From NCBI GenBank assembly GCA_964016885.1, contig OZ024740.1, positions 295,864,001 through 295,928,000 on the forward strand: DNA of 64,000 nt, given 5' to 3'. The position numbers were made by a program, and so were the translations under genes. Shown here in pieces: positions 23,834-58,860 of the stretch. Numbering within the stretch: the stretch's first letter is position 1; every line of letters begins with the position of its first letter. The notes under the pieces are model-generated. The model worked only from the letters and a program-made list of their open reading frames with translations, had not been told where the DNA came from and ran no database searches. This DNA is from Eledone cirrhosa. Lineage: Eukaryota.

Positions 23834-24097
23834 TATTTCTTTTATTTGCCACTGGGGCATCAAAAGTGGGACAAGTACAAAGGGGGGAGTTTACACAAAA
23901 AGGCGTCCTCAATAAGGAGGAGGCAATAACAAAATATAAAAATAAAATAAGATATAACAAAAAATAAAATTTTTAACAAAATCCTCAATAGAGAGGTGGC
24001 GCCTTGGGGGGTCGCACACACCCCCGAAAAAAGTGTGCAACCCTTCTCCTCAGGAGCACAGAGAAGGGGTGCTCCCTTGGTCTTTCATCTTCCTCAC
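23834..24097 (-). other. Structured 264-nt 3' UTR with a terminal AATAAA and no poly(A) tail (present in all four copies)
   Basis: The sense end is ...GGCAAATAAAAGAAATA, joined directly to the target. Complementary segments: 24009-24019/24033-24043, 24041-24048/24061-24068 and 24053-24059/24069-24075. Confidence 0.7.
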
Positions 24098-27000
24098 CTA
24101 TAGTCTGATGTAGAGTGAAGGCCCATTCACACGGGCCATTCTCGCCACTTTCACCCATCTTTCATAGAAACGGCTGGGGTGCAGCACCTCTCTCTCCATC
24201 CTGATCCTTCTTCCGAAATGATATCGGAAGAAACGGACCAGTTGTTGGCCAGAGAGAAAGGTGCCCGACCTCAGTCCTTTCAGACGCGTCCACCATACAA
24301 CCTCTTTCGCCATGGCTATTACGCACAGAAACACCGCCTCTGCTTCATCTTTGAAGGGGGGAGGCGGCTTGATCATTACAATAGACTCGGTGGTCAACCG
24401 GATCGGTCCCACCCTTGACAGCAGTTGTTCGACATAGCCCCACAGATCGGCTACGCCCGAGCAGTGTACTAATGCGTGTGCAACGGTTTCCTCGTCGCAC
24501 ACGCATCTGGGACAGATCTTTTTGGCGGGGTCCCTACCCGGGCGCCCGTGTCTGTAGAGCCTTTCTCGAACGGGTAAAGCCCCTCGGTAGCACTGCCAGG
24601 CCAGGGACTTCTGGAAGTTGTCCATAGGTCCCGGGCTGAATGTCCTACCGAACAGGCTGGCCAGTTCGTCCTCCTCCATGTCTAGGGCTTCTCCGAGGGC
24701 GTCGTCGCACCTGCTGCGTACCAGCCCTCTATAGAATGTTGCGGTGGAGTCTCCACTGATAACCGGATCCGCCTGCCAGAGGGCGGTGAGCGCCTGGGCA
24801 CACTCAGTGTGCCAGGCGCCCAGTTTTCTCGGTCTTTGCTTGACCCAGGATTGCAGCTCGGTGAGTGAGACGAGTCTGGGAAAGGTTCGTCTCACAAACG
24901 AGGCCCACACCGGTTGTCCGGTGAGGAATACGTAGAGGTGCCGTAGCCTTAATGCGTGTTTACGCATCATTAGCCACGGCATCCCCAGCCCTCCTTTCGA
25001 AGGGTGTTGACAGCAGATGGATCTCCTCACCATAGGAGCCCGCCTCTTCCAAAGGAATTGGAAGAGCGCGCGCTCCATCTTGGTGAGGGTTTCCCTTGGG
25101 CAGGGCACTACGGTCAGGCGGTAGTAGATGACGGACGCTATGTAGGTGTTCGCCACCTCCGCCCGGCCTTTCAGGGATAGTTTGCAACTGGCCCACTTCT
25201 GGGTCAGTGCAAACACCCTGTTCGTAACCTCCGCCCAGTTTTTCTCCACCTGGAGGTCCGGTCCGAACCAGACCCCGAGCAACTTCACCGGGCCCTCCGT
25301 CCAGCGTCCGACGACGCTATCGGAGGGCATCGGTCTGCCCCTCCATGTGCCGAGTTGCAAACCGATCGACTTGTCCCGGTTCAGCTTAGCCCCTGTGAAC
25401 TTTTCGTACTCCTCCAGTAAGGTGCCGACCGCCTCGATTTCGGAGGCCGTCGACACCATTACTGTCACGTCATCGGCGTAGGCCGACACCGCTTTCCGCA
25501 ATCCCGGTTCCAAAGGGATGCCCTGCAACAACTCCAACTTCCGCAGTAGTGGCTCGAGAGTCAACACATACAGAAGGGAGGAGAGAGGGCACCCTTGTCG
25601 GATGGACCGCGCGATTTTGAACGGCTCCGAGAGGTAGCCATTCACCTTGACCCTAGAGCAGATGCGGCTGCTGTGCATAGCAGTGATCCAGCCCCTGAAA
25701 ACGGGTCCGAAGCCTGCCGCCGCTAGCACCGCATCCAGGTAACCATGGTCGACCCTATCGAACGCCTTAGATTGATCCAAGTTGATCAGAGCCCCACCAA
25801 AGCCGGGTTCGTTCCCAACCCTCTCTATGATGTATCGCATGAGGTGGAGGTTGTCATGGATGGACCTGGACGGGATAGCGCATGTCTGCGCATCTCCCAC
25901 CAGGTTGCCCACGACAAGCGCCAACCTCTTTGCTAGCACCTTGGCCAAAATCTGTAACTCTGTATTTAGCAGTGTTATGGGCCTGAAGTTACTTATTTCG
26001 TCCCCCTTGTTCTCGTCCTTCCTCACTAGCGTGACTACGCCCTTGGTCACAGTACAGGGAATTCTCCCGTTCTGTTGCCAGTTGCAGTAGACCGCCTCGA
26101 GGAGATCGGGGAACAAGTCCGGCATAGCTAGATATAATTCGTAAGGAAGACCATCGAGACCCGGGGATTTGCGTTTGCCGCATTGGCTCAGCACGTCCTC
26201 TATCTCAGCGGCCGAAATCGGCTCTTCGCAGGACTTCGCCTCCCTGTCCGAGAGGCGCGGCAGGCCGTCGAGGTATGGACCGAAGTCCACGTTCCCAACC
26301 GGCTCCCCGCCCCTCCCGAACAGTCGGGCAAAGTGCCTTTGAAAGGCCTCACACATCTGCTTAGGCTCAAGAATCGCCCGTCCATCCAGGTCTCGCAAAG
26401 ACCGGATGGTGGATTTAGTTCCACTGTTGGCCTCTGTCACGCGGGCCCAGCTAACAGCTTTGGTCCCCTCGTTCCCTAGAGCACGTATTTTACTTCGGAC
26501 AACGCAGCCTTCGTGCTTTGCGTCGAAAAACTGGCTCAAAGCCGTTCTCGACGCTAGCACTCTGGCCACGTCGCCGCTTCTAATTGCCTCTTCTACTCTA
26601 TCTATTAGCTCCCTTTCCTTCCTATTCCTATCCGCAGCTAGAACCTTACTAAATTCTATCGAGACTACTCTAATCTCTCTCTTTAGAGATACCCACCACC
26701 TGCTGTTGACGATCGCTCCAGTCAACCGTTCCTTAACTAACGTACTAATCCGATTCCTGTAGGCTCTACTTGCCGGCAAGGACAAGTTGAGCTTCCAGTA
26801 ACCGGGGCCCTGTCTATGAGTTCTGTCAAGGTTGACCATGCAGGTCACTAATTTGTGGTCTGAATAGCCAACAATGCGCATTTTTGGACAACTTAAAAAG
26901 TCCTTATCCTTAATTCTAACTAAGAACCTATCTAGGTACGACCTAGATGATCCGCTACGATTTGCCCAAGTCCAGGTTGGCGCAGTCGGAAAATCTAGTC

Positions 27001-27535
27001 GATATCTATCGGCCAGGTCAAATCGACCGATTAACCCTTTGAGGCTATTACACCCCTCTCTATCGGGGCAGGCCCCTACGTAGTCCCAGCGTGCATCTAG
27101 GATACCATTCCAGTCCCCCACTAATAGCAAGGAGCGGGACGTCCCTAGAAAAGTCTCCAGACGATGGAAGAAGTCCGGCCGCATTGACCCGAAAGGGCCG
27201 TAGGCGGCTACCAACCTAAACGCTCCGCCTTTACCACTGCCAAGGTCCAGAACCACTAGTCGACCCTCCGGGTCCAAATGTACCATCTGTGTTGCGAGAC
27301 CCAGATGTTTTTGCAGCAGAACGACAACTCCACCCCCACCTCCGGGCTGACAGAGAGATGCGTGCATCTCAAAGTCATCAAAGGTGGGGGCCAGCTGTCG
27401 CACGTTGCTGATCCGGGCCTCGCAAATAACCATCACATCTATACGTTGTGACCTGAGGTCATTTAGAAGCATTGCTTGCTTCCAAGTTGAGCCCAGGCCA
27501 CGCGCATTTAAACAGCCTACTCTTAGCATAGCCAT
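24098..27535 (-). CDS. ORF2 pol protein (APE endonuclease, reverse transcriptase, C-terminal CCHC zinc finger), intact
   Basis: APE motifs VGCLNARG, ICEAR, LVGDWN, YLDRFLV, YSDHK. RT motifs KSPGLDG, FRPITLLN, DQSKAFDRV, RQGCPLS, YADD. Zinc finger CPRC-x8-H-x4-C. The frame is open from 27559 (GTG); the first ATG, in strong Kozak context (AACATGG), is at 27535. Confidence 0.95.
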   Translation of the reverse strand: MAMLRVGCLNARGLGSTWKQAMLLNDLRSQRIDVMVICEARISNVRQLAPTFDDFEMHASLCQPGGGGGVVVLLQKHLGLATQMVHLDPEGRLVVLDLGSGKGGAFRLVAAYGPFGSMRPDFFHRLETFLGTSRSLLLVGDWNGILDARWDYVGACPDREGCNSLKGLIGRFDLADRYRLDFPTAPTWTWANRSGSSRSYLDRFLVRIKDKDFLSCPKMRIVGYSDHKLVTCMVNLDRTHRQGPGYWKLNLSLPASRAYRNRISTLVKERLTGAIVNSRWWVSLKREIRVVSIEFSKVLAADRNRKERELIDRVEEAIRSGDVARVLASRTALSQFFDAKHEGCVVRSKIRALGNEGTKAVSWARVTEANSGTKSTIRSLRDLDGRAILEPKQMCEAFQRHFARLFGRGGEPVGNVDFGPYLDGLPRLSDREAKSCEEPISAAEIEDVLSQCGKRKSPGLDGLPYELYLAMPDLFPDLLEAVYCNWQQNGRIPCTVTKGVVTLVRKDENKGDEISNFRPITLLNTELQILAKVLAKRLALVVGNLVGDAQTCAIPSRSIHDNLHLMRYIIERVGNEPGFGGALINLDQSKAFDRVDHGYLDAVLAAAGFGPVFRGWITAMHSSRICSRVKVNGYLSEPFKIARSIRQGCPLSSLLYVLTLEPLLRKLELLQGIPLEPGLRKAVSAYADDVTVMVSTASEIEAVGTLLEEYEKFTGAKLNRDKSIGLQLGTWRGRPMPSDSVVGRWTEGPVKLLGVWFGPDLQVEKNWAEVTNRVFALTQKWASCKLSLKGRAEVANTYIASVIYYRLTVVPCPRETLTKMERALFQFLWKRRAPMVRRSICCQHPSKGGLGMPWLMMRKHALRLRHLYVFLTGQPVWASFVRRTFPRLVSLTELQSWVKQRPRKLGAWHTECAQALTALWQADPVISGDSTATFYRGLVRSRCDDALGEALDMEEDELASLFGRTFSPGPMDNFQKSLAWQCYRGALPVRERLYRHGRPGRDPAKKICPRCVCDEETVAHALVHCSGVADLWGYVEQLLSRVGPIRLTTESIVMIKPPPPFKDEAEAVFLCVIAMAKEVVWWTRLKGLRSGTFLSGQQLVRFFRYHFGRRIRMEREVLHPSRFYERWVKVARMARVNGPSLYIRL

Positions 27536-27559
27536 GTTGGTGGTGAAGAGAAAAGGCAC

Positions 27560-29023
27560 TTACCTCTCTGCGTTCCGGGTTTCGGGCTGCACAATTTCCA
27601 TTAGGGTGGGGGATGGGTTGTTGGGTGGGGTGGTGGTTTGTGGAAGTGTGGGGGCATCAGTGTGTTGTGTGGTTGGGGAGCTTGGAGTTGTGAGGGTGTT
27701 TGGGGAGGGGGTGGGATAGTTTTTTAGGAGGACGCGGTTAATGGGCCCGACGCAGGGGGGACCCACGTCCTCTTTAAAATTGTTTTTTAAAGTTTTATAG
27801 GTGTCCTGTGGGGCCTTAATCATTTTGAGGTGGGGGAAATCCCCTGCCTGGGTGAAGTTAGGCCCTTGTGTTTTTATTAGATTGTTGTTGTACACAATGT
27901 TTAACAGTTTTTTGTTTCTTGTATTTATGTATGTGTATGCATGTTTTTGTTTTTGTGTGGTGTTTTTTGTTTGCTGTTGTGAGCTCTTTTGTGTTGGTGT
28001 CAGTGTTATGTTTTGGGGAGGGTTTTTTTTCATTTGTGTGTCTGAGGTGTGTTTTCTTTTTTTTCTTTTGATTGTGTGGAAGTGCTCCTCCTCGTCTGAC
28101 GACGAACTAGGGTCATCTTCCGCGTTGGAGGGGAGGGGTATATTTTCGGGTTGTGTTTGCGGTACGGGTGTTTTGGAAATTGTTTTTGTTTTTTGAGTGG
28201 AGGGGATGGGTTGGACATTGTTTTGTTTTGGTTTGAGCTGTGGTGGTTGTTTTTGTAGTGGTAGTTGTGGTGATTGTGTTGGTTGTGCAGCTGTTGGTGG
28301 TGTAGGCAGGATTGGGGTTTTCTTATTAAGTTGGGGACAGACAGCCCTCAGGTGACCTCTGGTTCCGCAGAGGTAACACGAGGGCCGTCTACCCTCAACG
28401 GTAATGTTGATGAAGGTTAGATCATCCAGTATGACGCGTTCAGGGATCTGGGCGATCCTTTCGGGCCTCATTTGAACTACAAGTTCGAGGCTCGTTCCAC
28501 TGAACGCGTCACCCGATGCCTTTCCCATGGACACCAGCATGTCATCCTCCAGGTCCAGAAAACCTGTCAAAACCCACCATATGTCCATAATCGGCAGGAT
28601 GGTGTGGATTTTTATTTTTTGTGTTCTTCTACCCATGTACGTAGGGTAGAAGGTGTATGCGGTGGATGTGATTGGTTTGATGGACAGTTTCACTGCTGTG
28701 TCCCTGTCCTTCATGAGAATGGATAGACTCCCGTAGAGTCTATCCTTCTGAATGAAGGTGATGTCCTTCATGACGTCTTTTAAAACCAGCTCTATCTCGC
28801 TCTGTGATGGTTGAGCTGGTTTTTTACTTTTGTTCGAGATTGTCCTAAACATGACCGTGTTTAGGAGTCTCTGGCTTTTTAGTTCCGGGGGGGAATGGAT
28901 TGTGAATGAACCATTTTCCCCGTACACTATATATTTTTTCGCATCCGCCAGTAGCTCCTTCGCTTTTGTTATATCTACTGGCAGATAGTCGAGGGTTTTC
29001 CTTGTCGTCTCGGCGAAGGAGAA
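27560..29023 (-). pseudogene. ORF1 (gag-like nucleic-acid-binding protein), 5'-truncated
   Basis: Matches the C-terminal ~488 aa of copy 3 ORF1, including the CYLCGTRGHLRAVC knuckle. The native ATG and the poly-Asn N-terminus are missing. Confidence 0.88.
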
Positions 29024-32000
29024 ATATATAATATAGATAGTGAGCGTAACTGAGAATATATTATATAGACAGTGAGTGTACCTAAGAATATATTATATAG
29101 ACAGTGAGTGTACCTAATAAAATATTATATAGAGAGTGAGTGTACCTAAGAATATATTACATAGACAGTGATTGTACCTAAGAATATATTATATAGGCAC
29201 TGAATGGACCTGAGAATATATTATCTAGACAATAAGTGTACCTAAGGATATATTATATAGAGAGTGAGTGCACTGAGAATATATTATATAGACAGTGAGT
29301 GTACCTAAGAATATATTATATAGACAGTGAATGTATCCAAGAATATATTATATAGATAGTGAGTGTATCTGAGAATATATTATATAGACAGTGAGTGTAC
29401 ATAAGAATATATTATATAGACAGTAAATGTACCTAAGAATATATTATATAGATAGTGAGTGTATCTAAGAATATATTATATAGATAGTGAGTGTATCTAA
29501 GAATATATTATATAGACAGTGAGTGTACCTAAGAATATATTATATAGACAGTGAGTGTACCTAAGAATATATTATATAGACAGTGAGTGTATCTAAGAAT
29601 ATATTATATAGACAGTGAGTGTACCTAGGAATATATTATATAGACAGTGAGTGTACCTATGCATATATTATATAGACAGTGAGTGTACCTAAGATTATAT
29701 TATATAGACAGTGAGTGTAACTAAGAATATATTATATAGACAGTGAGTGTACCCGAGAATATATTATATAGACAGTGATTGTACCTAAGAATATATTATA
29801 TAGACAGTGAGTGTACCTAACAATATATTATATAGACAGTGAGTGTACCTAAGAATATATTATATAGAAAGTGAGTGTACCAAACAATATATTATATAGA
29901 CAGTGAGTGTACCTAAGAATATATTATATAGAGAGTGAGTGTACCTAAGAATATATTATATAGACAGTGATTGTACCTAAGAATATATTATATAGACAGT
30001 GAGTGTACCTAAGAATATATTATATAGACAGTGAGTGTACCTAGGAATATATCATATAGACAGTGAGTGTACCTAAGCATATATTATATAGACAGTGAGT
30101 GTACCTAAGATTATATTATATAGACAGTGAGTGTAACTAAGAATATATTATATAGACAGTGAGTGTATTCGAGAATATATTATATAGACAGTGAGTGTAC
30201 TGAATATATATTATATAGACAATGAGTGTACCTAAGAATATATTATATAGACAGTGAGTGTACCTAACAATATATTATATAGACAGTGAGTGTACCTAAG
30301 AATATATTATATAGACAGCCAGTGTACTGAATATATATTATATATACAATGAGTGTACCTAAGAATATATTATATAGACAGTGAGTGTACCTAAGAATAT
30401 ATAATATAGACAGTGAGTGTACCTAAGAATATATTATATAGACAGTGAGTTTACCTAAGAATATATTATATAGACAGTGAGTGTTCCTAAGAATATATTA
30501 TATAGACAGTGAGTGTACTGAATATATATTATATAGACAATGAGTGTACCTAAGAATATATTATATAGACAATGAGTGTACCTAACAATATATTATATAG
30601 ACAGTGAGTGTACCTAAGAATATATTATATAGACAGCCAGTTTACTGAATATATATTATATATACAATGAGTGTAACTAAGAATATATTATATAGACAGT
30701 GAGTGTACCTAAGAATATATAATATAGACAGTGAGTGTACCTAAGAATATATTATATAGACAGTGAGTGTACCTAAGAATATATTATATAGACAGTGAGT
30801 GTTCCTAAGAATATATTATATAGACAGTGAGTGTACTGAATATATATTATATAGACAATGAGTGTACCTAAGAATATATTATATAGACAGTGAGTGTACC
30901 TAACAATATATTATATAGACAGTGAGTGTACCTAAGAATATATTATATAGACAGCCAGTGTACTGAATATATATTATATATACAATGAGTGTACCTAAGA
31001 ATATATTATATAGACAGTGAGTGTACCTAAGAATATATAATATAGATAGTGAGCGTAACTGAGAATATATTATATAGACAGTGAGTGTACCTAAGAATAT
31101 ATTATATAGACAGTGAGTGTACCTAATAAAATATTATATAGAGAGTGAGTGTACCTAAGAATATATTACATAGACAGTGATTGTACCTAAGAATATATTA
31201 TATAGGCACTGAATGGACCTGAGAATATATTATCTAGACAATAAGTGTACCTAAGGATATATTATATAGAGAGTGAGTGCACTGAGAATATATTATATAG
31301 ACAGTGAGTGTACCTAAGAATATATTATATAGACAGTGAATGTATCCAAGAATATATTATATAGATAGTGAGTGTATCTGAGAATATATTATATAGACAG
31401 TGAGTGTACATAAGAATATATTATATAGACAGTAAATGTACCTAAGAATATATTATATAGATAGTGAGTGTATCTAAGAATATATTATATAGATAGTGAG
31501 TGTATCTAAGAATATATTATATAGACAGTGAGTGTACCTAAGAATATATTATATAGACAGTGAGTGTACCCGAGAATATATTATATAGACAGTGATTGTA
31601 CCTAAGAATATATTATATAGACAGTGAGTGTACCTAACAATATATTATATAGACAGTGAGTGTACCTAAGAATATATTATATAGAAAGTGAGTGTACCAA
31701 ACAATATATTATATAGACAGTGAGTGTACCTAAAAATATATTATATAGACAGTGAGTGTACCTAAGAATATATTATATAGAGAGTGAGTGTACCTAAGAA
31801 TATATTATATAGACAGTGATTGTTCCTAAGAATATATTATATAGACAGTGAGTGTACCTAAGAATATATTATATAGACAGTGAGTGTACCTAGGAATATA
31901 TCATATAGACAGTGAGTGTACCTAAGCATATATTATATAGACAGTGAGTGTACCTAAGATTATATTATATAGACAGTGAGTGTAACTAAGAATATATTAT

Positions 32001-33929
32001 ATAGACAGTGAGTGTATTCGAGAATATATTATATAGACAGTGATTGTACCTAAGAATATATTATATAGACAGTGAGTGTACCTATCAATATATTATATAG
32101 ACAGTGAATGTACCTAAGAATATATTATATAGAGAGTGAGTGTACCTAAGAATATATTATATAGACAGTGAGTGTACCTAAGAATATATTATATAGACTG
32201 TGAGTGTACCTAAGAATATATTATATAGACAGTGATTGTACCTAAGAATATATTATATAGACAGTGAGTGTACCTGAAAATATATATTATATAGACTGTG
32301 AGTGTATCTAAGAATATATTATATAGACAGTGAATGTATTCAAGAATATATTATATAGATAGTGAGTGTATCTGAGAATATATTATATAGACAGTGAGTG
32401 TACATAAGAATATATTATATAGACAGTGAGTGTACCTAATAATATATTATATAGACAGTGATTGTACCTAAGAATATATTATATAGGCACTGAATGGACC
32501 TGAGAATATATTATCTAGACAATAAGTGTACCTAAGGATATATTATATAGAGAGTGAGTGTACTGAGAATATATTATATAGACAGTGAATGTATCCAAGC
32601 ATATATTATATAGACAGTGAGTGTACCTGAGAATATATTATATAGACAGTGAGTGTACCTAAGAATATATTATATAGATAGTGAGTGTATCCAAGAATAT
32701 ATTATATAGACAGTGAGTGTACCTGAAAATATATATTATATAGACAGTGAGTGTACCTAAGAATATATTATATAGACAGTGAATGTATCCAAGAATATAT
32801 TATATAGATAGTGAGTGTATCTGAGAATATATTATATAGACAGTGAGTGTACATAAGAATATATTGTATAGATAGTGAGTGTATCCAAGAATATATTATA
32901 TAGACAGTGAGTGTACCTGAGAATATATTATATAGACAGTGAGTGTACCTAAGAATATATTATATAGACAGTGAATGTATTCAAGAATATATTATATAGA
33001 TAGTGAGTGTATCTGAGAATATATTATATAGACAGTGAGTGTACATAAGAATATATTATATAGACAGTGAGTGTACCTAAGAATATATTATATAGATAGT
33101 GAGTGTATCTAAGAATATATTATATAGATAGTGAGTGTATCTAAGAATATATTATATAGACAGTGAGTGTACCTAAGAATATATTATATAGACAGTGAGT
33201 GTAGCTAAGAATATATTATATAGACAGTGAGTGTACCTAAGAATATATTATATAGACATTGAGTGTACCTAGGAATATATTATATAGACAGTGAGTGTAC
33301 CTAAGCATATATTATATAGACAGTGAGTGTACCTAAGATTATATTATATAGACAGTGAGTGTAACTAAGAATATATTATATAGACAGTGAGTGTACCCGG
33401 GAATATATTATATAGACAGTGATTGTACCTAAGAATATATTATATAGACAGTGAGTGTACCTAACAATATATTATATAGACAGTGAGTGTACCTAAGAAT
33501 ATATTATATAGAAAGTGAGTGTACCAAACAATATATTATATAGACAGTGAGTGTACCTAAGAATATATTATATAGACAGTGAGTGTACCTAAGAATATAT
33601 TATATAGAGAGTGAGTGTACCTAAGAATATACTATATAGACAGTGAGTGTACCTAAGAATATATTATATAGACAGTGAGTGTACCTAAGATTATATTATA
33701 TAGACAGTGAGTGTACCTAGGAATATATCATATAGACAGTGAGTGTACCTAAGAATATATTATATAGAGTGTGAGTGTTCCTAAGAATATATTATATAGA
33801 CAGTGAGTGTACTGAATATATATTATATAGACAATGAGTGTACCTAAGAATATATTATATAGACAGTGAGTGTACCTGAGAATATATTATATAGACAGTG
33901 AGTGTACCTAAGAATATATTATATAGATA
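29023..33929. repeat. 32-bp satellite, segment 2
   Basis: Same monomer and orientation, between retrotransposon copies 1 and 2. Confidence 0.97.
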
Positions 33930-36587
33930 TGTTTCTTTTATTTGCCACTAGGGCATCAAAAGTGGGACAAGTACAAAGGGGGGAGTTTACACAAAAAGGC
34001 GTCCTCAATAAGGAGGAGGCAATAACAAAATATAAAAATAAAATAAGATATAACAAAAAATAAAATTTTTAACAAAATCCTCAATAGAGAGGAGGCGCCT
34101 TGGGGGGTCGCACACACCCCCGAAAAAAGTGTGCAACCCTTCTCCTCAGGAGCACAGAGAAGGGGTGCTCCCTTGGTCTTTCATCTTCCTCACCTATAGT
34201 CTGATGTAGAGTGAAGGCCCATTCACACGGGCCATTCTCGCCACTTTCACCCATCTTTCATAGAAACGGCTGGGGTGCAGCACCTCTCTCTCCATCCTGA
34301 TCCTTCTTCCGAAATGATATCGGAAGAAACGGACCAGTTGTTGGCCAGAGAGAAAGGTGCCTGACCTCAGTCCTTTCAGACGCGTCCACCATACAACCTC
34401 TTTCGCCATGGCTATTACGCACAGAAACACCGCCTCTGCTTCATCTTTGAAGGGGGGAGGCGGCTTGATCATTACAATAGACTCGGTGGTCAACCGGATC
34501 GGTCCCACCCTTGACAGCAGTTGTTCGACATAGCCCCACAGATCGGCTACGCCCGAGCAGTGTACCAATGCGTGTGCAACGGTTTCCTCGTCGCACACGC
34601 ATCTGGGACAGATCTTTTTGGCGGGGTCCCTACCCGGACGCCCGTGTCTGTAGAGCCTTTCTCGAACGGGTAAAGCCCCTCGGTAGCACTGCCAGTCCAG
34701 GGACTTCTGGAAGTTGTCCATAGGTCCCGGGCTGAATGTCCTACCGAACAGGCTGGCCAGTTCGTCCTCCTCCATGTCTAGGGCTTCTCCGAGGGCGTCG
34801 TCGCACCTGCTGCGTACCAGCCCTCTATAGAATGTTGCGGTGGAGTCTCCACTGATAACCGGATCCGCCTGCCAGAGGGCGGTGAGCGCCTGGGCACACT
34901 CAGTGTGCCAGGCGCCCAGTTTTCTCGGTCTTTGCTTGACCCAGGATTGCAGCTCGGTGAGTGAGACGAGTCTGGGAAAGGTTCGTCTCACAAACGAGGC
35001 CCACACCGGTTGTCCGGTGAGGGATACGTAGAGGTGCCGTAGCCTTAATGCGTGTTTACGCATCATTAGCCACGGCATCCCCAGCCCTCCTTTCGAAGGG
35101 TGTTGACAGCAGATGGATCTCCTCACCATAGGAGCCCGCCTCTTCCAAAGGAATTGGAAGAGCGCGCGCTCCATCTTGGTGAGGGTTTCCCTTGGGCAGG
35201 GCACTACGGTCAGGCGGTAGTAGATGACGGACGCTATGTAGGTGTTCGCCACCTCCGCCCGACCTTTCAGGGATAGTTTGCAACTGGCCCACTTCTGGGT
35301 CAGTGCAAACACCCTGTTCGTAACCTCCGCCCAGTTTTTCTCCACCTGGAGGTCCGGTCCGAACCAGACCCCGAGCAACTTCACCGGGCCCTCCGTCCAG
35401 CGTCCGACGACGCCATCGGAGGGCATCGGTCTGCCCCTCCACGTGCCGAGTTGCAAACCGATCGACTTGTCCCGGTTCAGCTTAGCCCCTGTGAACTTTT
35501 CGTACTCCTCCAGTAAGGTGCCGACCGCCTCGATTTCGGAGGCCGTCGACACCATTACTGTCACGTCATCGGCGTAGGCCGACACCGCTTTCCGCAATCC
35601 CGGTTCCAAAGGGATGCCCTGCAACAACTCCAACTTCCGCAGTAGTGGCTCGAGAGTCAACACATACAGAAGGGAGGAGAGAGGGCACCCTTGTCGGATG
35701 GATCGCGCGATTTTGAACGGCTCCGAGAGGTAGCCGTTCACATTGACCCTAGAGCAGATGCGGCTGCTGTGCATAGCAGTGATCCAGCCCCTGAAAACGG
35801 GTCCGAAGCCTGCCGCCGCTAGCACCGCATCCAGGTAACCATGGTCGACCCTATCGAACGCCTTAGATTGATCCAAGTTGATTAGAGCCCCACCAAAGCC
35901 GGGTTCGTTCCCAACCCTCTCTATGATGTATCGCATGAGGTGGAGGTTGTCATGGATGGACCTGGACGGGATAGCGCATGTCTGCGCATCTCCCACCAGG
36001 TTGCCCACGACAAGCGCCAACCTCTTTGCTAGCACCTTGGCCAAAATCTGTAACTCTGTATTTAGCAGTGTTATGGGCCTGAAGTTACTTATTTCGTCCC
36101 CCTTGTTCTCGTCCTTCCTCACTAGCGTGACTACGCCCTTGGTCACAGTACAGGGAATTCTCCCGTTCTGTTGCCAGTTGCAGTAGACCGCCTCGAGGAG
36201 ATCGGGGAACAAGTCCGGCATAGCTAGATATAATTCGTAAGGAAGACCATCGAGACCCGGGGATTTGCGTTTGCCGCATTGGCTCAGCACGTCCTCTATC
36301 TCAGCGGCCGAAATCGGCTCCTCGCAGGACTTCGCCTCCCTGTCCGAGAGGCGCGGCAGGCCGTCGAGGTATGGACCGAAGTCCACGTTCCCGACCGGCT
36401 CCCCGCCCATCCCGAACAGTCGGGCAAAGTGCCTTTGAAAGGCCTCACACATCTGCTTAGGCTCAAGAATAACCGTCCATCCAGGTCTCGCAAAGACCGG
36501 ATGGTGGATTTAGTTCCACTGTTGGCCTCTGTCACGCGGGCCCAGCTAACAGCTTTGGTCCCCTCGTTCCCTAGAGCACGTATTTTA
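33930..36587 (-). mobile_element. Tx1-like retrotransposon, copy 2, 5'-truncated within ORF2 (about 2.66 kb)
   Basis: Same 3' end as the other copies. Truncated at ...CTAGAGCACGTATTTTA. 13-bp TSD TATTATATAGATA at 33917-33929 and 36586-36598. Confidence 0.96.
34194..36587 (-). pseudogene. Truncated ORF2 (RT and zinc finger; endonuclease lost) with a frameshift near 36471
   Basis: 752-aa frame with YADD and about 5 substitutions relative to copies 1 and 3. AAGAATAACCGTCC replaces AAGAATCGCCCGTCC, a net 1-bp loss. Confidence 0.9.
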
Positions 36588-39500
36588 TTATATAGATAGT
36601 GAGTGTATCTAAGAATATATTATATAGATAGTGAGTGTACCTAAGAATATATTATATAGACAGTGAGTGTACCTAAGAATATATTATATAGACAGTGAGT
36701 GTACCTAAGAATATATTATATAGACAGTGAGTGTACCTAAGAATATATTATATAGACAGTGAGTGTACCAAGGAATATATCATATAGACAGTGAGTGTAC
36801 CTAAGCATATATTATATAGACAGTGAGTGTACCTAAGATTATATTATATAGACAGTGAGTGTAACTAAGAATATATTATATAGACAGTGAGTGTACCTGA
36901 GAATATATTATATAGACAGTGATTGTACCTAAGAATATATTATATAGACAGTGAGTGTACCTAACAATATATTATATAGACAGTGAGTGTTCCTAAGAAT
37001 ATATTATATAGAAAGTGAGTGTACCAAACAATATATTATATAGACAGTGAGTGTACCTAAGAATATATTATATAGACAGTGAGTGTGCCTAAGAATATAT
37101 TATATAGAGAGTGAGTGTACCTAAGAATATATTATATAGACAGTGAGTGTACCTAAGAATATATTATATAGACAGTGATTGTACCTAAGAATATATTATA
37201 TAGACAGTGAGTGTACCTGAAAATATATATTATATAGACAGTGAGTGTACCTAAGAAAATATTATATAGACAGTGAATGTATCCAAGAATATATTATATA
37301 GATAGTGAGTGTATCTGAGAATATATTATATAGACAGTGAGTGTACATAAAAATATATTATATAGATAGTGAGTGTATCCAAGAATATATTATATAGACA
37401 GTGAGTGTACCTGAAAATATATATTATATAGACAGTGAGTGTACCTAAGAATATATTATATAGACAGTGAATGTATCAAAGAATATATTATATAGATAGT
37501 GAGTGTATCTGAGAATATATTATATAGACAGTGAGTGTACATAAGAATATATTATATAGATAGTGAGTGTATCCAAGAATATATTATATAGACAGTGAGT
37601 GTACCTGAGAATATATTATATAGACAGTGAGTGTACCTAAGAATATATTATATAGACAGTGAATGTATCCAAGAATATATTATATAGATAGTGAGTGTAT
37701 CTGAGAATATATTATATAGACAGTGAGTGTACATAAGAATATATTATATAGACAGTGAGCGTACCTACGAATATATTATATAGATAGTGAGTGTACCTGA
37801 GAATATATTATATAGACAGTGAGTGTACCTAAGAATATATTATATAGAGTGTGAGTGTTCCTAAGAATATATTATATAGACAGTGAGTGTACTGAATATA
37901 TATTATATAGACAATGAGTGTACCTAAGAATATATTATATATACAGTGAGTGTACCTAAGAATATATTATATAGACAGTGAGTGTACCTAAGAATATATT
38001 ATATAGACAGTGAGTGTACCTAAGAATATATTATATAGACAGTGAGTGTACCTAAGAATATATTATATAGAGTGTGAGTGTTCCTAAGAATATATTATAT
38101 AGACAGTGAGTGTACTGAATATATATTATATAGACAATGAGTGTACCTAAGAATATATTATATAGACAGTGAGTGTACCTAACAATATATTATATAGACA
38201 GTGAGTGTACCTAAGAATATATTATATAGACAGCCAGTGTACTGAATATATATTATATATACAATGAGTGTACCTAAGAATATATTATATAGACAGTGAG
38301 TGTACCTAAGAATATATTATATAGACAGTGAGTGTACCTAAGAATATATTATATAGACAGTGAGTGTAACTAAGAATATATTATATAGACAGTGAGTGTT
38401 CCTAAGAATATATTATATAGACAGTGAGTGTACTGAATATATATTATATAGACAATGAGTGTACCTAAGAATATATTATATAGACAGAGAGTGTACCTAA
38501 GAATATATTATATAGATAGTGAGCGTACCTGAGATTATATTATATAGACAGTGAGTGTACCTAAGAATATATTATATAGACAGTGAGTGTACCTAATAAA
38601 ATATTATATAGAGAGTGAGTGTACCTAAGAAAATATTACATAGACAGTGAGTGTACCTGACAATATATTATATAGATAGTGAGTGTACCTAAGAATATAT
38701 TATATAGACAGTGAGTGTAACTAATAATATATTATATAGACAGTGATTGTACCTAAGAATATATTATATAGGCACTGAATGGACCTGAGAATATATTATC
38801 TAGACAATAAGTGTACCTAAGGATATATTATATAGAGAGTGAGTGTACTGAGAATATATTATATAGACAGTGAATGTATCCAAGAATATATTATATAGAC
38901 AGTGAGTGTACCTGAGAATATATTATATAGACAGTGAGTGTACCTAAGAATATATTATATAGATAGTGAGTGTATCCAAGAATATATTATATAGACAGTG
39001 AGTGTACCTGAAAATATATATTATATATACAGTGAGTGTACCTAAGAATATATTATATAGACAGTGAATGTATCCAAGAATATATTATATAGATAGTGAG
39101 TGTATCTGAGAATATATTATATAGACAGTGAGTGTACATAAGAATATATTATATAGATAGTGAGTGTATCCAAGAATATATTATATAGACAGTGAGTGTA
39201 CCTGAGAATATATTATATAGACAGTGAGTGTACCTAAGAATATATTATATAGACAGTGAATGTATCCAAGAATATATTATATAGATAGTGAGTGTATCTG
39301 AGAATATATTATATAGACAGTGAGTGTACATAAGAATATATTATATAGACAGTGAGTGTACCTAAGAATATATTATATAGATAGTGAGTGTATCTAAAAA
39401 TATATTATATAGATAGTGAGTGTATCTAAGAATATATTATATAGACAGTGAGTGTACCTAAGAATATATTATATAGGCAGTGAGTGTACCTAAGAATATA

Positions 39501-42500
39501 TTATATAGACAGTGAGTGTAACTAAGAATATATTATATAGACAGTGAGTGTACCCGAGAATATATTATATAGACAGTGATTGTACCTAAGAATATATTAT
39601 ATAGACAGTGAGTGTACTGAGAATATATTATATAGACAGTGAGTGTACCTAAGAATATATTATATAGAAAGTGAGTGTACCAAACAATATATTAAATAGA
39701 CAGTGAGTGTACCTATGAATATATTATATAGACAGTGAGTGTACTGAGAATATATTATATAGACAGTGAATGTATCCAAGAATATATTATATAGACAGTG
39801 AGTGTACCTGAGAATATATTATATAGACAGTGAGTGTACCTAAGAATATATTATATAGATAGAGAGTGTATCCAAGAATATATTATATAGACAGTGAGTG
39901 TACCTGAAAATATATATTATATAGACAGTGAGTGTACCTAAGAATATATTATATAGACAGTGAATGTATCCAAGAATATATTATATAGATAGTGAGTGTA
40001 TCTGAGAATATATTATATAGACAGTGAGTGTACATAAGAATATATTATATAGATAGTGAGTGTATCCAAGAATATATTATATAGACAGTGAGTGTACCTA
40101 AGAATATATTATATAGACAGTGAATGTATCCAAGAATATATTATATAGATAGTGAGTGTATCTGAGAATATATTATATAGACAGTGAGTGTACAAAAGAA
40201 TATATTATATAGACAGTGAGTGTACCTAAGAATATATTATATAGATAGTGAGTGTATCTAAGAATATATTATATAGATAGTGAGTGTATCTAAGAATATA
40301 TTATTTAGACAGTGAGTGTACCTAAGAATATATTATATAGACAGTGAGTGTACCTAAGAATATATTATATAGAGAGTGAGTGTACCTAAGAATATATTAT
40401 ATAGACAGTGAGTGTACCTAAGAATATATTATATAGACAGTGAGTGTACCTAAGAATATATTATATAGACAGTGATTGTACCTAAGAATATATTATATGG
40501 ACAGTGAGTGTACCTGAAAATATATATTATATAGACAGTGAGTGTACCTAAGAATATATTATATAGAGAGTGAATGTATCCAAGAATATATTATATAGAT
40601 AGTTAGTGTATCTGAGAATATATTATATAGACAGTGAGTGTACATAAGAATATATTATATAGATAGTGAGTGTATCCAAGAATATATTATATAGACAGTG
40701 AGTGTACCTGAAAATATATATTATATAGACAGTGAGTGTACCTAAGAATATATTATATAGACAGTGAATGTATCAAAGAATATATTATATAGATAGTGAG
40801 TGTATCTGAGAATATATTATATAGACAGTGAGTGTACATAAGAATATATTATATAGATAGTGAGTGTATCCAAGAATATATTATATAGACAGTGAGTGTA
40901 CCTGAGAATATATTATATAGACAGTGAGTGTACCTAAGAATATATTATAAAGACAGTGAATGTATCCAAGAATATATTATATAGATAGTGAGTGTATCTG
41001 AGAATATATTATATAGGCAGTGAGTGTACATAAGAATATATTATATAGACAGTGAGCGTACCTACGAATATATTATATAGATAGTGAGTGTACCTGAGAA
41101 TATATTATATAGACAGTGAGTGTACCTAAGAATATATTATATAGAGTGTGAGTGTTCCTAAGAATATATTATATAGACAGTGAGTGTACTGAATATATAT
41201 TATATAGACAATGAGTGTACCTAAGAATATATTATATAGACAGTGAGTGTACCTAAGAATATATTATATAGACAGTGAGTGTACCTAAGAATATATTATA
41301 TAGACAGTGAGTGTACCTAAGAATATATTATATAGACAGTGAGTGTACCTAAGAATATATTATATAGAGTGTGAGTGTTCCTAAGAATATATTATATAGA
41401 CAGTGAGTGTACTGAATATATATTATATAGACAATGAGTGTACCTAAGAATATATTATATAGACAGTGAGTGTACCTAACAATATATTATATAGACAGTG
41501 AGTGTACCTAAGAATATATTATATAGACAGCCAGTGTACTGAATATATATTATATATACAATGAGTGTACCTAAGAATATATTATATAGACAGTGAGTGT
41601 ACCTAAGAATATATTATATAGACAGTGACTGTACCTAAGAATATATTATATAGACAGTGAGTGTTCCTAAGAATATATTATATAGACAGTGAGTGTACTG
41701 AATATATATTATATAGACAATAAGTGTACCTAAGAATATATTATATAGACAGAGAGTGTACCTAAGAATATATTATATAGATAGTGAGCGTACCTGAGAT
41801 TATATTATATAGACAGTGAGTGTACCTAAGAATATATTATATAGACAGTGAGTGTACCTAATAAAATATTATATAGAGAGTGAGTGTACCTAAGAATATA
41901 TTACATAGACAGTGAGTGTACCTGACAATATATTATATAGACAGTGATTGTACCTAACAATATATTATACAGGCACTGAATGGACCTGAGAATATATTAT
42001 CTAGACAATAAGTGTACCTAAGGATATATTATATAGAGAGTGAGTGTACTGAGAATATATTATATAGACAGTGAATGTATCCAAGAATATATTATATAGA
42101 CAGTGAGTGTACCTGAGAATATATTATATAGACAGTGAGTGTACCTAAGAATATATTATATAGATAGTGAGTGTATCCAAGAATATATTATATAGACAGT
42201 GAGTGTACCTGAAAATATATATTATATAGACAGTGAGTGTACCTAAGAATATATTATATAGACAGTGAATGTATCCAAGAATATATTATATAGATAGTGA
42301 GTGTATCTGAGAATATATTATATAGACAGTGAGTGTACATAACAATATATTATATAGATAGTGAGTGTATCCAAGAATATATTATATAGACAGTGAGTGT
42401 ACCTGAGAATATATTATATAGACAGTGAGTGTACCTAAGAATATATTATATAGACAGTGAATGTATCCAAGAATATATTATATAGATAGTGAGTGTATCT

Positions 42501-45500
42501 GAGAATATATTATATAGACAGTGAGTGTACATAAGAATATATTATATAGATAGTGAGTGTATCCAAGAATATATTATATAGACAGTGAGTGTACCTAAGA
42601 ATATATTATATAGACAGTGAGTGTACCTAAGAATATATTATATAGACAGTGAGTGTACCCGAGAATATATTATATAGACAGTGATTGTACCTAGGAATAT
42701 ATTATATAGACAGTGAGTGTACCTAAGCATATATTATATAGACAGTGAGTGTACCTAAGATTATATTATATAGACAGTGAGTGTAACTAAGAATATATTA
42801 TATAGACAGTGAGTGTACCCGAGAATATATTATATAGACAGTGATTGTACCTAAGAATATATTATATAGACAGTGAGTGTACCTAACAATATATTATATA
42901 GACAGTGAGTTTACCTAAGAATATATTATATAGAAAGTGATTGTACCAAACAATATATTAAATAGACAGTGAGTGTACCTATGAATATATTATATAGACA
43001 GTGAGTGTACTGTGAATATATTATATAGACAGTGAATGTATCCAAGAATATATTATATAGACAGTGAGTGTACCTGAGAATATATTATATAGACAGTGAG
43101 TGTACCTAAGAATATATTATATAGATAGTGAGTGTATCCAAGAATATATTATATAGACAGTGAGTGTACCTGAAAATATATATTATATAGACAGTGAGTG
43201 TACCTAAGCATATATTATATAGACAGTGAGTGTTCCTAAGAATATATTATATAGACAGTGAGTGTACTGAATATATATTATATAGACAATGAGTGTACCT
43301 AAGAATATATTATATAGACAGAGAATGTACCTAAGAATATATTATATAGATAGTGAGCGTACCTGAGATTATATTATATAGACAGTGAGTGTACCTAAGA
43401 ATATATTACATAGACAGTGAGTGTATCTGACAATATATTATATAGATAGTGAGTGTACCTACGAATATATTATATAGACAGTGAGTGTAACTAATAATAT
43501 ATTATATAGACAGTGATTGTACCTAAGAATATATTATATAGGCACTGAATGGACCTGAGAATATATTATCTAGACAATAAGTGTACCTAAGGATATATTA
43601 TATAGAGAGTGAGTGTACTGAGAATATATTATATAGACAGTGAATGTATCCAAGAATATATTATATAGACAGTGAGTGTACCTGAGAATATATTATATAG
43701 ACAGTGAGTGTACCTAAGAATATATTATATAGATAGTGAGTGTATCCAAGAATATATTATATAGACAGTGAGTGTACCTGAAAATATATATTATATAGAC
43801 AGTGAGTGTACCTAAGAATATATTATATAGACAGTGAATGTATCCAAGAATATATTATATAGATAGTGAGTGTATCTGAGAATATATTATATAGACAGTG
43901 AGTGTACATAAGAATATATTATATAGATAGTGAGTGTATCCAACAATATATTATATAGACAGTGAGTGTACCTGAGAATATATTATATAGACAGTGAGTG
44001 TACCTAAGAATATATTATATAGACAGTGAATGTATCCAAGAATATATTATATAGATAGTGAGTGTATCTCAGAATATATTATATAGACAGTGAGTGTACA
44101 TAAGAATATATTATATAGACAGTGAGTGTACCTAAGAATATATTATATAGATAGTGAGTGTATCTAAGAATATATTAAATAATTAGTGAGTGTATCTAAG
44201 AATATATTATATAGACAGTGAGTGTACCTAAGAATATATTATATAGACAGTGAGTGTACCTAAGAATATATTATATAGACAGTGAATGTATCCAAGAATA
44301 TCTTATATAGATAGTGAGTGTATCTGAGAATATATTATATAGGCAGTGAGTGTACATAAGAATATATTATATAGACAGTGAGCGTACCTACGAATATATT
44401 ATATAGATAGTGAGTGTACCTGAGAATATATTATATAGACAGTGAGTGTACCTAAGAATATATTATATAGAGTGTGAGTGTTCCTAAGAATATATTATAT
44501 AGACAGTGAGTGTACTGAATATATATTATATAGACAATGAGTGTACCTAAGAATATATTATATAGACAGTGAGTGTACCTAAGAATATATTATATAGACA
44601 GTGAGTGTACCTAAGAATATATTATATAGACAGTGAGTGTACCTAAGAATATATTATATAGACAGTGAGTGTACCTAAGAATATATTATATAGAGTGTGA
44701 GTGTTCCTAAGAATATATTATATAGACAGTGAGTGTACTGAATATATATTATATAGACAATGAGTGTACCTAAGAATATATTATATAGACAGTGAGTGTA
44801 CCTAACAATATATTATATAGACAGTGAGTGTACCTAAGAATATATTATATAGACAGCCAGTGTACTGAATATATATTATATATACAATGAGTGTACCTAA
44901 GAATATATTATATAGACAGTGAGTGTACTGAATATATATTATATAGACAATAAGTGTACCTAAGAATATATTATATAGACAGAGAGTGTACCTAAGAATA
45001 TATTATATAGATAGTGAGCGTACCTGAGATTATATTATATAGACAGTGAGTGTACATAAGAATATATTATATAGATAGTGAGTGTATCCAAGAATATATT
45101 ATATAGACAGTGAGTGTACCTGAAAATATATATTATATAGACAGTGAGTGTACCTAAGAATATATTATATAGACAGTGAATGTATCAAAGAATATATTAT
45201 ATAGATAGTGAGTGTATCTGAGAATATATTATATAGACAGTGAGTGTACATAAGAATATATTATATAGATAGTGAGTGTATCCAAGAATATATTATATAG
45301 ACAGTGAGTGTACCTGAGAATATATTATATAGACAGTGAGTGTACCTAAGAATATATTATATAGACAGTGAATGTATCCAAGAATATATTATATAGATAG
45401 TGAGTGTCTCTGAGAATATATTATATAGGCAGTGAGTGTACATAAGAATATATTATATAGACAGTGAGCGTACCTACGAATATATTATATAGATAGTGAG

Positions 45501-48500
45501 TGTACCTGAGAATATATTATATAGACAGTGAGTGTACCTAAGAATATATTATATAGAGTGTGAGTGTTCCTAAGAATATATTATATAGACAGTGAGTGTA
45601 CTGAATATATATTATATAGACAATGAGTGTACCTAAGAATATATTATATAGACAGTGAGTGTACCTAAGAATATATTATATAGACAGTGAGTGTACCTAA
45701 GAATATATTATATAGACAGTGAGTGTACCTAAGAATATATTATATAGACAGTGAGTGTACCTAAGAATATATTATATAGAGTGTGAGTGTTCCTAAGAAT
45801 ATATTATATAGACAGTGAGTGTACTGAATATATATTATATAGACAATGAGTGTACCTAAGAATATATTATATAGACAGTGAGTGTACCTAACAATATATT
45901 ATATAGACAGTGAGTGTACCTAAGAATATATTATATAGACAGCCAGTGTACTGAATATATATTATATATACAATGAGTGTACCTAAGAATATATTATATA
46001 GACAGTGAGTGTACCTAAGAATATATTATATAGACAGTGACTGTACCTAAGAATATATTATATAGACAGTGAGTGTTCCTAAGAATATATTATATAGACA
46101 GTGAGTGTACTGAATATATATTATATAGACAATAAGTGTACCTAAGAATATATTATATAGACAGAGAGTGTACCTAAGAATATATTATATAGATAGTGAG
46201 CGTACCTGAGATTATATTATATAGACAGTGAGTGTACCTAAGAATATATTATATAGACAGTGAGTGTACCTAATAAAATATTATATAGAGAGTGAGTGTA
46301 CCTAAGAATATATTACATAGACAGTGAGTGTACCTGACAATATATTATATAGACAGTGATTGTACCTAACAATATATTATACAGGCACTGAATGGACCTG
46401 AGAATATATTATCTAGACAATAAGTGTACCTAAGGATATATTATATAGAGAGTGAGTGTACTGAGAATATATTATATAGACAGTGAATGTATCCAAGAAT
46501 ATATTATATAGACAGTGAGTGTACCTGAGAATATATTATATAGACAGTGAGTGTACCTAAGAATATATTATATAGATAGTGAGTGTATCCAAGAATATAT
46601 TATATAGACAGTGAGTGTACCTGAAAATATATATTATATAGACAGTGAGTGTACCTAAGAATATATTATATAGACAGTGAATGTATCCAAGAATATATTA
46701 TATAGATAGTGAGTGTATCTGAGAATATATTATATAGACAGTGAGTGTACATAACAATATATTATATAGATAGTGAGTGTATCCAAGAATATATTATATA
46801 GACAGTGAGTGTACCTGAGAATATATTATATAGACAGTGAGTGTACCTAAGAATATATTATATAGACAGTGAATGTATCCAAGAATATATTATATAGATA
46901 GTGAGTGTATCTGAGAATATATTATATAGACAGTGAGTGTACATAAGAATATATTATATAGATAGTGAGTGTATCCAAGAATATATTATATAGACAGTGA
47001 GTGTACCTAAGAATATATTATATAGACAGTGAGTGTACCTAAGAATATATTATATAGACAGTGAGTGTACCCGAGAATATATTATATAGACAGTGATTGT
47101 ACCTAGGAATATATTATATAGACAGTGAGTGTACCTAAGCATATATTATATAGACAGTGAGTGTACCTAAGATTATATTATATAGACAGTGAGTGTAACT
47201 AAGAATATATTATATAGACAGTGAGTGTACCCGAGAATATATTATATAGACAGTGATTGTACCTAAGAATATATTATATAGACAGTGAGTGTACCTAACA
47301 ATATATTATATAGACAGTGAGTTTACCTAAGAATATATTATATAGAAAGTGATTGTACCAAACAATATATTAAATAGACAGTGAGTGTACCTATGAATAT
47401 ATTATATAGACAGTGAGTGTACTGTGAATATATTATATAGACAGTGAATGTATCCAAGAATATATTATATAGACAGTGAGTGTACCTGAGAATATATTAT
47501 ATAGACAGTGAGTGTACCTAAGAATATATTATATAGATAGTGAGTGTATCCAAGAATATATTATATAGACAGTGAGTGTACCTGAAAATATATATTATAT
47601 AGACAGTGAGTGTACCTAAGCATATATTATATAGACAGTGAGTGTTCCTAAGAATATATTATATAGACAGTGAGTGTACTGAATATATATTATATAGACA
47701 ATGAGTGTACCTAAGAATATATTATATAGACAGAGAATGTACCTAAGAATATATTATATAGATAGTGAGCGTACCTGAGATTATATTATATAGACAGTGA
47801 GTGTACCTAAGAATATATTACATAGACAGTGAGTGTATCTGACAATATATTATATAGATAGTGAGTGTACCTACGAATATATTATATAGACAGTGAGTGT
47901 AACTAATAATATATTATATAGACAGTGATTGTACCTAAGAATATATTATATAGGCACTGAATGGACCTGAGAATATATTATCTAGACAATAAGTGTACCT
48001 AAGGATATATTATATAGAGAGTGAGTGTACTGAGAATATATTATATAGACAGTGAATGTATCCAAGAATATATTATATAGACAGTGAGTGTACCTGAGAA
48101 TATATTATATAGACAGTGAGTGTACCTAAGAATATATTATATAGATAGTGAGTGTATCCAAGAATATATTATATAGACAGTGAGTGTACCTGAAAATATA
48201 TATTATATAGACAGTGAGTGTACCTAAGAATATATTATATAGACAGTGAATGTATCCAAGAATATATTATATAGATAGTGAGTGTATCTGAGAATATATG
48301 ATATAGACAGTGAGTGTACATAAGAATATATTATATAGATAGTGAGTGTATCCAACAATATATTATATAGACAGTGAGTGTACCTGAGAATATATTATAT
48401 AGACAGTGAGTGTACCTAAGAATATATTATATAGACAGTGAATGTATCCAAGAATATATTATATAGATAGTGAGTGTATCTCAGAATATATTATATAGAC

Positions 48501-51500: not shown

Positions 51501-53112
51501 ATAGACAGTGAGTGTACCTAAGAATATATTATATAGACAGTGATTGTACCTAAGAATATATTATATGGACAGTGAGTGTACATGAAAATATATATTATAT
51601 AGACAGTGAGTGTACCTAAGAATATATTATATAGACAGTGAATGTATCCAAGAATATATTATATAGATAGTGAGTGTATCTGAGAATATATTATATAGAC
51701 AGTGAGTGTACATAAGAATATATTATATAGATAGTGAGTGTATCCAAGAATATATTATATAGACAGTGAGTGTACCTGAAAATATATATTATATAGACGG
51801 TGAGTGTACCTAAGAATATATTATATAGACAGTGAATGTATCAAAGAATATATTATATAGATAGTGAGTGTATCTGAGAATATATTATATAGACAGTGAG
51901 TGTACATAAGAATATATTATATAGATAGTGAGTGTATCCAAGAATATATTATATAGACAGTGAGTGTACCTGAGAATATATTATATAGACAGTGAGTGTA
52001 CCTAAGAATATATTATATAGACAGTGAATGTATCCAAGAATATATTATATAGATAGTGAGCGTATCTGAGAATATATTATATAGGCAGTGAGTGTACATA
52101 AGAATATATTATATAGACATTGAGTTTTCCCTTAGAATATATTATATAGACAGTGAGTGTACCTAAGAATATATTATATAGACAGTGAGTGTACCTAAGA
52201 ATATATTATATAGACAGTGAGTGTTCCTAAGAATATATTATATAGACAGTGAGTGTACTGAATATATATTATATAGACAATAAGTGTACCTAAGAATATA
52301 TTATATAGACAGAGAGTGTACCTAAGAATATGTTATATAGATAGTGAGCGTACCTGAGATTATATTATATAGACAGTGAGTGTACCTAAGAATATATTAT
52401 ATAGACAGTGAGTGTACCTAATAAAATATTATATAGAGAGTGAGTGTACCTAAGAATATATTACATAGACAGTGAGTGTACCTGACAATATATTATATAG
52501 ATAGTGAGTGTACCTAAGAATATATTATATAGACAGTGAGTGTAACTAATAATATATTATATAGACAGTGATTGTACCTAAGAATATATTATATAGGCAC
52601 TGAATGGACCTGAGAATATATTATCTAGACAATAAGTGTACCTAAGGATATATTATATAGAGAGTGAGTGTACTGAGAATATATTATATAGACAGTGAAT
52701 GTATCCAAGAATATATTATATAGACAGTGAGTGTACCTAAGAATATATTATATAGACAGTGAGTGTACCTAAGAATATATTATATAGATAGTGAGTGTAT
52801 CCAAGAATATATTATATAGACAGTGAGTGTACCTGAAAATATATATTATATAGACAGTGAGTGTACCTAAGAATATATTATATAGACAGTGAATGTATCC
52901 AAGAATATATTATATAGATAGTGAGTGTATCTGAGAATATATTATATAGACAGTGAGTGTACATAAGAATATATTATATAGATAGTGAGTGTATCCAAGA
53001 ATATATTATATAGACAGTGAGTGTACCTGAGAATATATTATATAGACAGTGAGTGTACCTAAGAATATATTATATAGACAGTGAATGTATCCAAGAATAT
53101 ATTATATAGATA
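36586..53112. repeat. 32-bp satellite, segment 3
   Basis: Same monomer and orientation, between copies 2 and 3. Confidence 0.97.
40630..49455. repeat. Tandem block duplication, period 4412 bp
   Basis: Rare variants recur at offset 4412: (TATAC)AGGCAC 41971/46383, TGTGAATA 43011/47423, AATTAG 44181/48593, GTATCAAAG 40770/45182. Boundaries are approximate. Confidence 0.88.
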
Positions 53113-56814: not shown

Positions 56815-56838
56815 GTTGGTGGTGAAGAGAAAAGGCAC

Positions 56839-58827: not shown

Positions 58828-58860
58828 TGTCCATCCCAGAGATAGATAGATAGATAGATG
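58828..58860 (-). promoter_or_regulatory. Possible internal Pol II core promoter (CA start plus DPE-like GGACA at +28 to +32)
   Basis: With A at 58859 as +1, the sense strand reads GGACA (RGWYV) at 58832-58828. The motif is short and degenerate, and the initiator match is weak. Confidence 0.3.

Follow-up and report, generated by a model that had tools for sequence, protein, structure and literature searches.

A one-base satellite variant in Eledone cirrhosa likely mimics the GATA-repeat target of a LINE family

Copies of a LINE interrupt a satellite array of Eledone cirrhosa, each at a monomer that differs by one base from the commonest form. This raises the question of why a minority variant is used, and whether the choice belongs to the satellite or to the element. 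The window (the 64,000-nt stretch analysed here) consists of 32-bp AT-rich monomers interrupted by four inserts, and belongs to a single array that was fetched entire (C1:295,731,900–296,048,414). C-type monomers form the majority, T-type (GATAG) monomers the minority, and higher-order repeats are present. Exact matching in the window gave 206 copies of TATAGATAGTG against 957 of TATAGACAGTG (206 of 1,163, 17.7% T) and a fuzzy-anchor count gave 211 T monomers of 1518 (13.9%), where an earlier note on this DNA had put GATAG by eye at very roughly one in six. Across the 316-kb array the share is 11–18%. Genome-wide, the exact 23-mers occur 690 times in the T form and 3761 times in the C form, every one within this array. 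The first 12,000 positions of the window (1–12000) hold a recent 6,006-bp tandem duplication of the satellite, recognizable by the marker monomers 4184/10190 and 4946/10952.

Window 1..64000, plus strand: satellite array of 32-bp AT-rich monomers, part of the single 316.5-kb array on C1.
C1:295,833,877, 30 kb upstream of the window: I0, the fifth array copy.
23833..29022, minus strand: I1, 5′-truncated LINE copy of 5.2 kb, ORF2 open, ORF1 without a start.
23817-23832 / 29023-29038: I1 target-site duplication, 16 bp, with a rare TATAAT variant on both sides.
33929..36585, minus strand: I2, 5′-truncated copy of 2.66 kb.
33917-33928 / 36586-36597: I2 duplication, 12 bp, ending AGAT.
53112..58841, minus strand: I3, full-length copy, both ORFs open, 3′ UTR of 265 bp.
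58842..59323, plus strand: I3 extra 5′ segment, a GATA run, an I0-type junction and satellite.
58842-58876: short GATA run and I0-type junction within that segment.
Satellite block of the same segment: 447 bp, 14 monomers, identical to the flank of I0.
59305-59323: true target junction of I3.
61529..61940, minus strand: I4, 3′ fragment of 412 bp.
61523-61528 / 61941-61946: I4 duplication, 6 bp.

I1–I4 are ~99%-identical copies of one element, all on the minus strand; with I0 they are the only copies in the 316.5-kb array that carry the LINE 3′ end, and all five share one orientation. The earlier note had claimed that all four targets in the window read GATAG on the genomic side, and the motif is indeed present at 29036-29040, 36595-36599, 58874-58878 and 61944-61948. 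The 3′ junctions of the four copies also end in AGAT, and I0 likewise lies at a T monomer, so insertion in the array at GATAG monomers only is confirmed. The exact count and binomial test that the note had called for give p = 9.8e-4 for four of four at T (17.7% T), and the chance that all array copies lie at GATAG monomers is about 1e-3 to 1e-4. The variant position was picked post hoc and this small-n P value is soft, which is why the genome-wide junction counts below carry the case.

One of the four positions had to be reassigned. The GATAG at 58874-58878 is the junction of I0, followed by 459 bp identical to the flank of I0, and was brought in with the 447-bp satellite block. The left flank of I3 joined to the flank past 59323 re-forms an empty site with 1 mismatch in 256 bp, whereas none of 22 other candidate positions does so (best, 4 mismatches). 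The true junction is therefore at 59321-59325, and it too reads GATAG. I3 as a plain duplicate of I0, which lies 83 kb upstream, was considered and rejected, since the two bodies differ at 22 positions, their left flanks are unlike, and I3 agrees with I2 in two states that set both apart from I0 and I1. The body of I3 comes from another sublineage than its I0-type 5′ block, and this arrangement suggests that satellite sequence may have moved with the LINE by transduction, template switch or conversion.

The wider family shows where the element usually lands. Copies counted through patterns of the 3′ end number about 2,000 (1,931 3′ ends; 1,991 with a shorter pattern). At the last base before the 3′ junction (−1), T occurs 1,922 times and C, with the pattern otherwise the same, not once; insertion into C monomers in proportion to their abundance, the outcome that the earlier note had set against its own claim, is thus not what the genome holds. 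Among the 1,991 copies, 1,738 match ANANA(G/T)AT (ANANAKAT), and about 85% (1,666, with a slightly different suffix pattern) end in AGAT. The first 30 copies on C1 all have AGAT or ATAT ends and lie mostly within (GATA)n or (TA)n; further copies fetched were nearly all of the same two types and mostly in the same repeats. Most of the ~2,000 copies sit in (GATA)n or (TA)n, and 5 in the satellite array. Of 86 copies that were read (21 of them selected by pattern, and exact duplicates such as L117 left out), 68 end in AGAT, 17 in ATAT and 1 in TGAT, with A at −2 and T at −1 invariant. Of the first 100 listed junctions that fit the motif, 73 read AGATAGAT (counted by hand), as do 40 of the 86. Background abundance was taken from 39 evenly placed 10-kb stretches (390 kb), which contain 185 ANANAGAC^A and 273 ANANAGAT^A sites and 17,227 ANANATAT^A sites, the last being 63 times commoner than ANANAGAT^A; C-ending sites are thus in ready supply. 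The same background holds 16 (GATA)4 and 0 (GACA)4, numbers too small for comparing the two microsatellites.

The 5′ side of the insertions agrees. After exclusion of 17 of 81 outside copies (full-length or with a junction missing), 64 truncated copies outside the array were available: 39 have a T-ending duplication of at least 7 bp, 14 of these in repeats that are not pure; 1 (L144) has the C version of the duplication; and 24 are without a clear duplication. At L144, on C24, the 3′ junction has T whereas the apparent 5′ duplicate has C; templating of the T by RNA would produce this mismatch, and so would a mutation that came afterwards. At the GACA-rich sites L138, L140 and L141 the insertion is at their AGAT, and at L020 a second, unrelated minisatellite (36 C units, 7 T matches) carries the insertion at a T unit. 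Other minisatellites have insertions at AGAAATAT, ACATATAT or AAATATAT (L116–L118 at C1:108.72–108.82 Mb, L081 and L087); the junctions of L116 and L117 are identical, so these represent one insertion, duplicated. In GATA runs, copies are stacked in tandem, often beside related families with similar 3′ ends (L090, L091, L096, L104, L105, L106 and L111); at L090 three copies lie 10–19 bp apart.

Returning to the array with the genome-wide motif, ANANA(G/T)AT^A occurs 999 times on the plus strand (875 AGAT sites, 836 of them plain T monomers, and 124 ATAT sites in rarer variants) and 5 times on the minus strand. The C version of the motif has 7,059 matches in the array, and the consensus C monomer matches the motif on neither strand. 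Absence from the C monomer and near-absence from the minus strand account for both the choice of T and the single orientation of the copies. The short rule A(G/T)AT^A was rejected as an explanation, with about 37,000 array matches on both strands; it is the 9-base motif that explains the choice. The element is thus no satellite specialist, and on these counts the T monomer likely mimics its GATA-repeat target. An unrelated 3.5-kb insert lies inside a C monomer of the same array (C1:295,955,9xx-295,959,4xx; L062:7900 to L063:1480), between A and T and without a duplication. Its minus strand opens with TC and closes with CTAG, the hallmark termini of Helitrons. C monomers are therefore open to other elements.

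A T at the 3′ junction could have been copied from RNA, and empty higher-order paralogues of the insertion sites were therefore compared. For I1 there is one exact paralogue:

31032..31047, plus strand: empty higher-order paralogue of the I1 site, identical over 256 bp, with T already at the variant base 31047.

Paralogues within 4 mismatches carry T in 20 of 20 cases for I0, and T is likewise found in 9 of 9 for I3 and 33 of 33 for I4. For I2, paralogues of the left flank carry C (11 of 11), those of the right flank T (9 of 11), and the nearest paralogues of both flanks, at 6 mismatches, C (4 of 4); a left-C/right-T split of this kind occurs at 63 of 840 T sites against 8 of 900 sampled C sites. 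Where a neighbour within 4 mismatches exists, the comparison calls the variant base correctly for T sites in 736 of 748 cases and for sampled C sites in 770 of 771. Judged by these paralogues, the T preceded insertion at four of the five sites (I0, I1, I3 and I4), and I2 is ambiguous. The proposal of the earlier note that a single C>T change makes a monomer a landing site is supported, both by these four sites and by the genome-wide junction counts.

These observations are best accommodated by the element's own endonuclease: the T monomer is probably chosen because the enzyme would nick ATATAGAT^A and not ATATAGAC^A, and the family ends at A(G/T)AT junctions throughout the genome. The putative sequence of events is that of target-primed reverse transcription. 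The APE endonuclease would nick the AGAT-reading strand at the T-A step, with a one-base ambiguity in position because the last base of the element also pairs there; the freed DNA end would prime cDNA synthesis; and a second nick 6–19 bp away would give rise to the duplication, 6–19 bp being the range of target-site duplications in the family. Against this reading stand L144, the 24 truncated copies that show no clear duplication, and the C in the nearest both-flank paralogues of I2. The human L1 endonuclease nicks 5′-TTTTT/AA-3′, probably through recognition of the DNA shape that T-A steps adopt (PMC8565326), and the C>T change in the monomer creates such a step.

Selection could also act after cleavage. 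Nicking would then be loose at AT-rich sites, and reverse transcription would start only where the RNA 3′ end, extended by read-through into AUCU or AU repeats, can pair with an AGAT or ATAT end, the T again pre-existing. We regard this as unlikely but worth keeping in view: invariance is concentrated at the last bases of the would-be primer (−1, −2 and −4) and relaxed at −5, a position that accepts C; for human L1, the abstract of PMC3649969 puts the terminal match required at about 4 bases; and most donors lie in GATA runs, from which read-through RNA would carry AUCU. Yet 54 of the 56 copies have A immediately after the duplication, a regularity that suggests a rule of cleavage provided that the nick does not lie one base beyond, and ATAT sites, for all their 63-fold excess in the background, receive a minority of insertions. 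None of the 124 ATAT-type matches in the array is used, a result for which five events are too few to judge. Endonuclease choice and primer–template pairing are predicted to give nearly the same junctions, and junction data separate the two poorly. That insertion itself wrote the T, the nick in a C monomer lying a few bases before the junction and the RNA tail supplying AGAT, would account for the lack of C at 3′ junctions and fits L144 and the C in the left-flank paralogues of I2. On this view, however, empty paralogues and 5′ junctions should show C, whereas every 5′ junction in the array has T, as do the paralogues of four of the five sites, and duplications outside the array are T in 39 cases against C in 1. 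This alternative is largely refuted, and we consider it very improbable.

Two further readings concern the array as a whole. An element co-evolved with the array and specific for its satellite, reading the satellite variant, would be in keeping with 5 copies in 316.5 kb, a density some 25-fold above the average of the genome (Poisson p = 2.5e-6), but a family of this kind would have most of its copies in satellite; only 5 of ~2,000 are in the array, and those elsewhere, mostly 97–99.8% identical, lie in simple repeats, which leaves such specificity with hardly any probability. Slighter still is the chance that coincidence, or one or two insertions multiplied through duplication of the array, produced the pattern. 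I3 and I0 do share a 5′ junction, short GATA run included, together with 459 bp of adjoining flank, I0 and I1 belong to the same higher-order position class, and I2 and I4 are identical across 412 bp; against this, I1, I2 and I4 differ in truncation point, flanks and duplication length (16, 12 and 6 bp), I0 and I3 differ in body and left flank as described, and the genome-wide junction counts refute it. We count five likely independent insertion events in the array, or four on a cautious reading. Nicking by the endonuclease at the T-A step of the T monomer is the reading that we favour.

The earlier note went further and held that variant composition would set the local density of insertions. 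The copies do lie in T-rich parts of the array, but their clustering exceeds what T content would predict. When the array is divided into sixteen 20-kb bins, all five copies fall within four of the five richest in T. The local T fraction around the copies averages 0.163 (±5 kb), against 0.119 from sampling T sites proportionally (p = 0.008; p = 0.067 at 2.5 kb and p = 0.007 at 10 kb), and the span of the five copies is short (p = 0.025). With five copies on ~875 array sites, the number per ANANAGAT^A site is several-fold above a rough genome-wide estimate, an excess that the motif alone does not explain. T is therefore necessary, but T count alone does not explain the clustering; five partly linked events carry little weight in either direction, and they give weak support to control of insertion density by T composition. 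A more ambitious and rather doubtful reading makes satellite variants a switch within a feedback loop, in which a spreading one-base variant would turn an immune satellite into a sink, T-rich stretches would attract more than their proportional share, and the element would move blocks of monomers with new T sites (447 bp with I3). If this were true, the turnover of satellite variants would predict where retroelements accumulate in arrays.

I3, with both frames intact, allows the element to be placed.

53377..56838, minus strand: I3 ORF2, with APE-type endonuclease, reverse transcriptase (YADD) and C-terminal CCHC zinc finger.
56839..58626, minus strand: I3 ORF1, 595 aa, with a CX2CX4HX4C zinc knuckle.

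ORF2 matches the Pfam families Exo_endo_phos, RVT_1 and zf-RVT (the last under its curated cut-off), and protein clusters (Atlas) with the same three families were found; ORF1 has no Pfam match. The best solved relative of ORF2 is human L1 ORF2p (E = 5e-48, residues 8–856), to which the endonuclease and reverse transcriptase motifs can be aligned, whereas the alignment with R2 (E = 3e-19) covers the reverse transcriptase core only. Several features are those of the L1 clade in the wide sense: two ORFs, of which ORF2 combines an N-terminal APE endonuclease, a reverse transcriptase and a C-terminal CCHC finger; a closest characterized relative that is L1 ORF2p and not an R2-type protein; and 5′ truncation with duplications of variable length (64 of 81 outside copies are truncated with the junction in hand). 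ORF1 of the Tx1 clade carries a gag-like CCHC zinc knuckle, as ORF1 does here, and from its resemblance we take the element to be Tx1-like; the relatives returned by the homologue searches included no named Tx1 reference. Four full-length copies (L079, L095, L101 and L123) are just 88% identical to I3 overall, with 3′ end and target unchanged, which suggests a possible second subfamily or recombinant lineage. The last four bases of the copies fall into five classes, ATA (25), AAG (18), ATG (15), AGG (2) and AGA (1), each followed by T (61 matches; for example, window 23833-23836 and 33929-33932), and these resemble a target unit that has decayed and become fixed at the end of the element.

As a case of target preference, the choice of the T monomer is fairly ordinary. 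It allows the target rule of a LINE to be read at single-base resolution within a genome, thousands of near-identical C and T sites serving as internal controls, and it delimits a family directed to (GATA)n, with intact ORFs and an endonuclease that could be assayed directly. In the literature searched we found neither a description of a GATA-targeting Tx1 family, which Repbase, the original Kibi/Koshi paper or Fig. 3 and the supplements of PMC4494074 could hold, nor a report of monomer-variant choice by a LINE. The passages found on the repeat annotation of Octopus vulgaris (PMC13282606) describe recently active L1-Tx1 families and leave target sites unmentioned.

Human LINE-1, whose ORF2p aligns with ORF2 here over 850 residues, is the best solved relative of the element, and the two would share, as proposed above, a nick at a T-A step. 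Duplication lengths in human LINE-1 are similar. Human LINE-1 ends in poly(A) and inserts at T tracts; in the element here the junction lacks a poly(A) run, ORF1 bears a zinc knuckle and the target follows an alternating A-N pattern. Waldo, Mino and Dong, which belong to other clades, resemble it in microsatellite-specific insertion and differ in the repeats used. ACAY and AC repeats are the targets of Waldo and Mino, and Dong inserts into TAA repeats (PMC3812793). Tx1 targets include ‘Sat, satellites’ by the Fig. 3 legend of PMC4494074; relative to such families, the satellite here would be an incidental mimic and not the main target. Nearest in kind of target are the Tx1-clade families Kibi, for (TC)n, and Koshi, for (TTC)n, in teleosts, and the crocodilian Tx1 families for (TTCC)n/(TTTC)n (PMC4494074 and PMC3812793), likewise APE-type non-LTR elements in microsatellites. 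PMC4494074 speaks of target specificity where more than 20% of flanks lie in one repeat type, a share that the present family far exceeds. The likeness is one of target type, and the target here is (GATA)n/(TATC)n, with (TA)n second, and not (TC)n or (TTC)n, so that the element is neither Kibi nor Koshi; the known list of microsatellite-targeting LINEs thereby grows by one target, with no principle changed.
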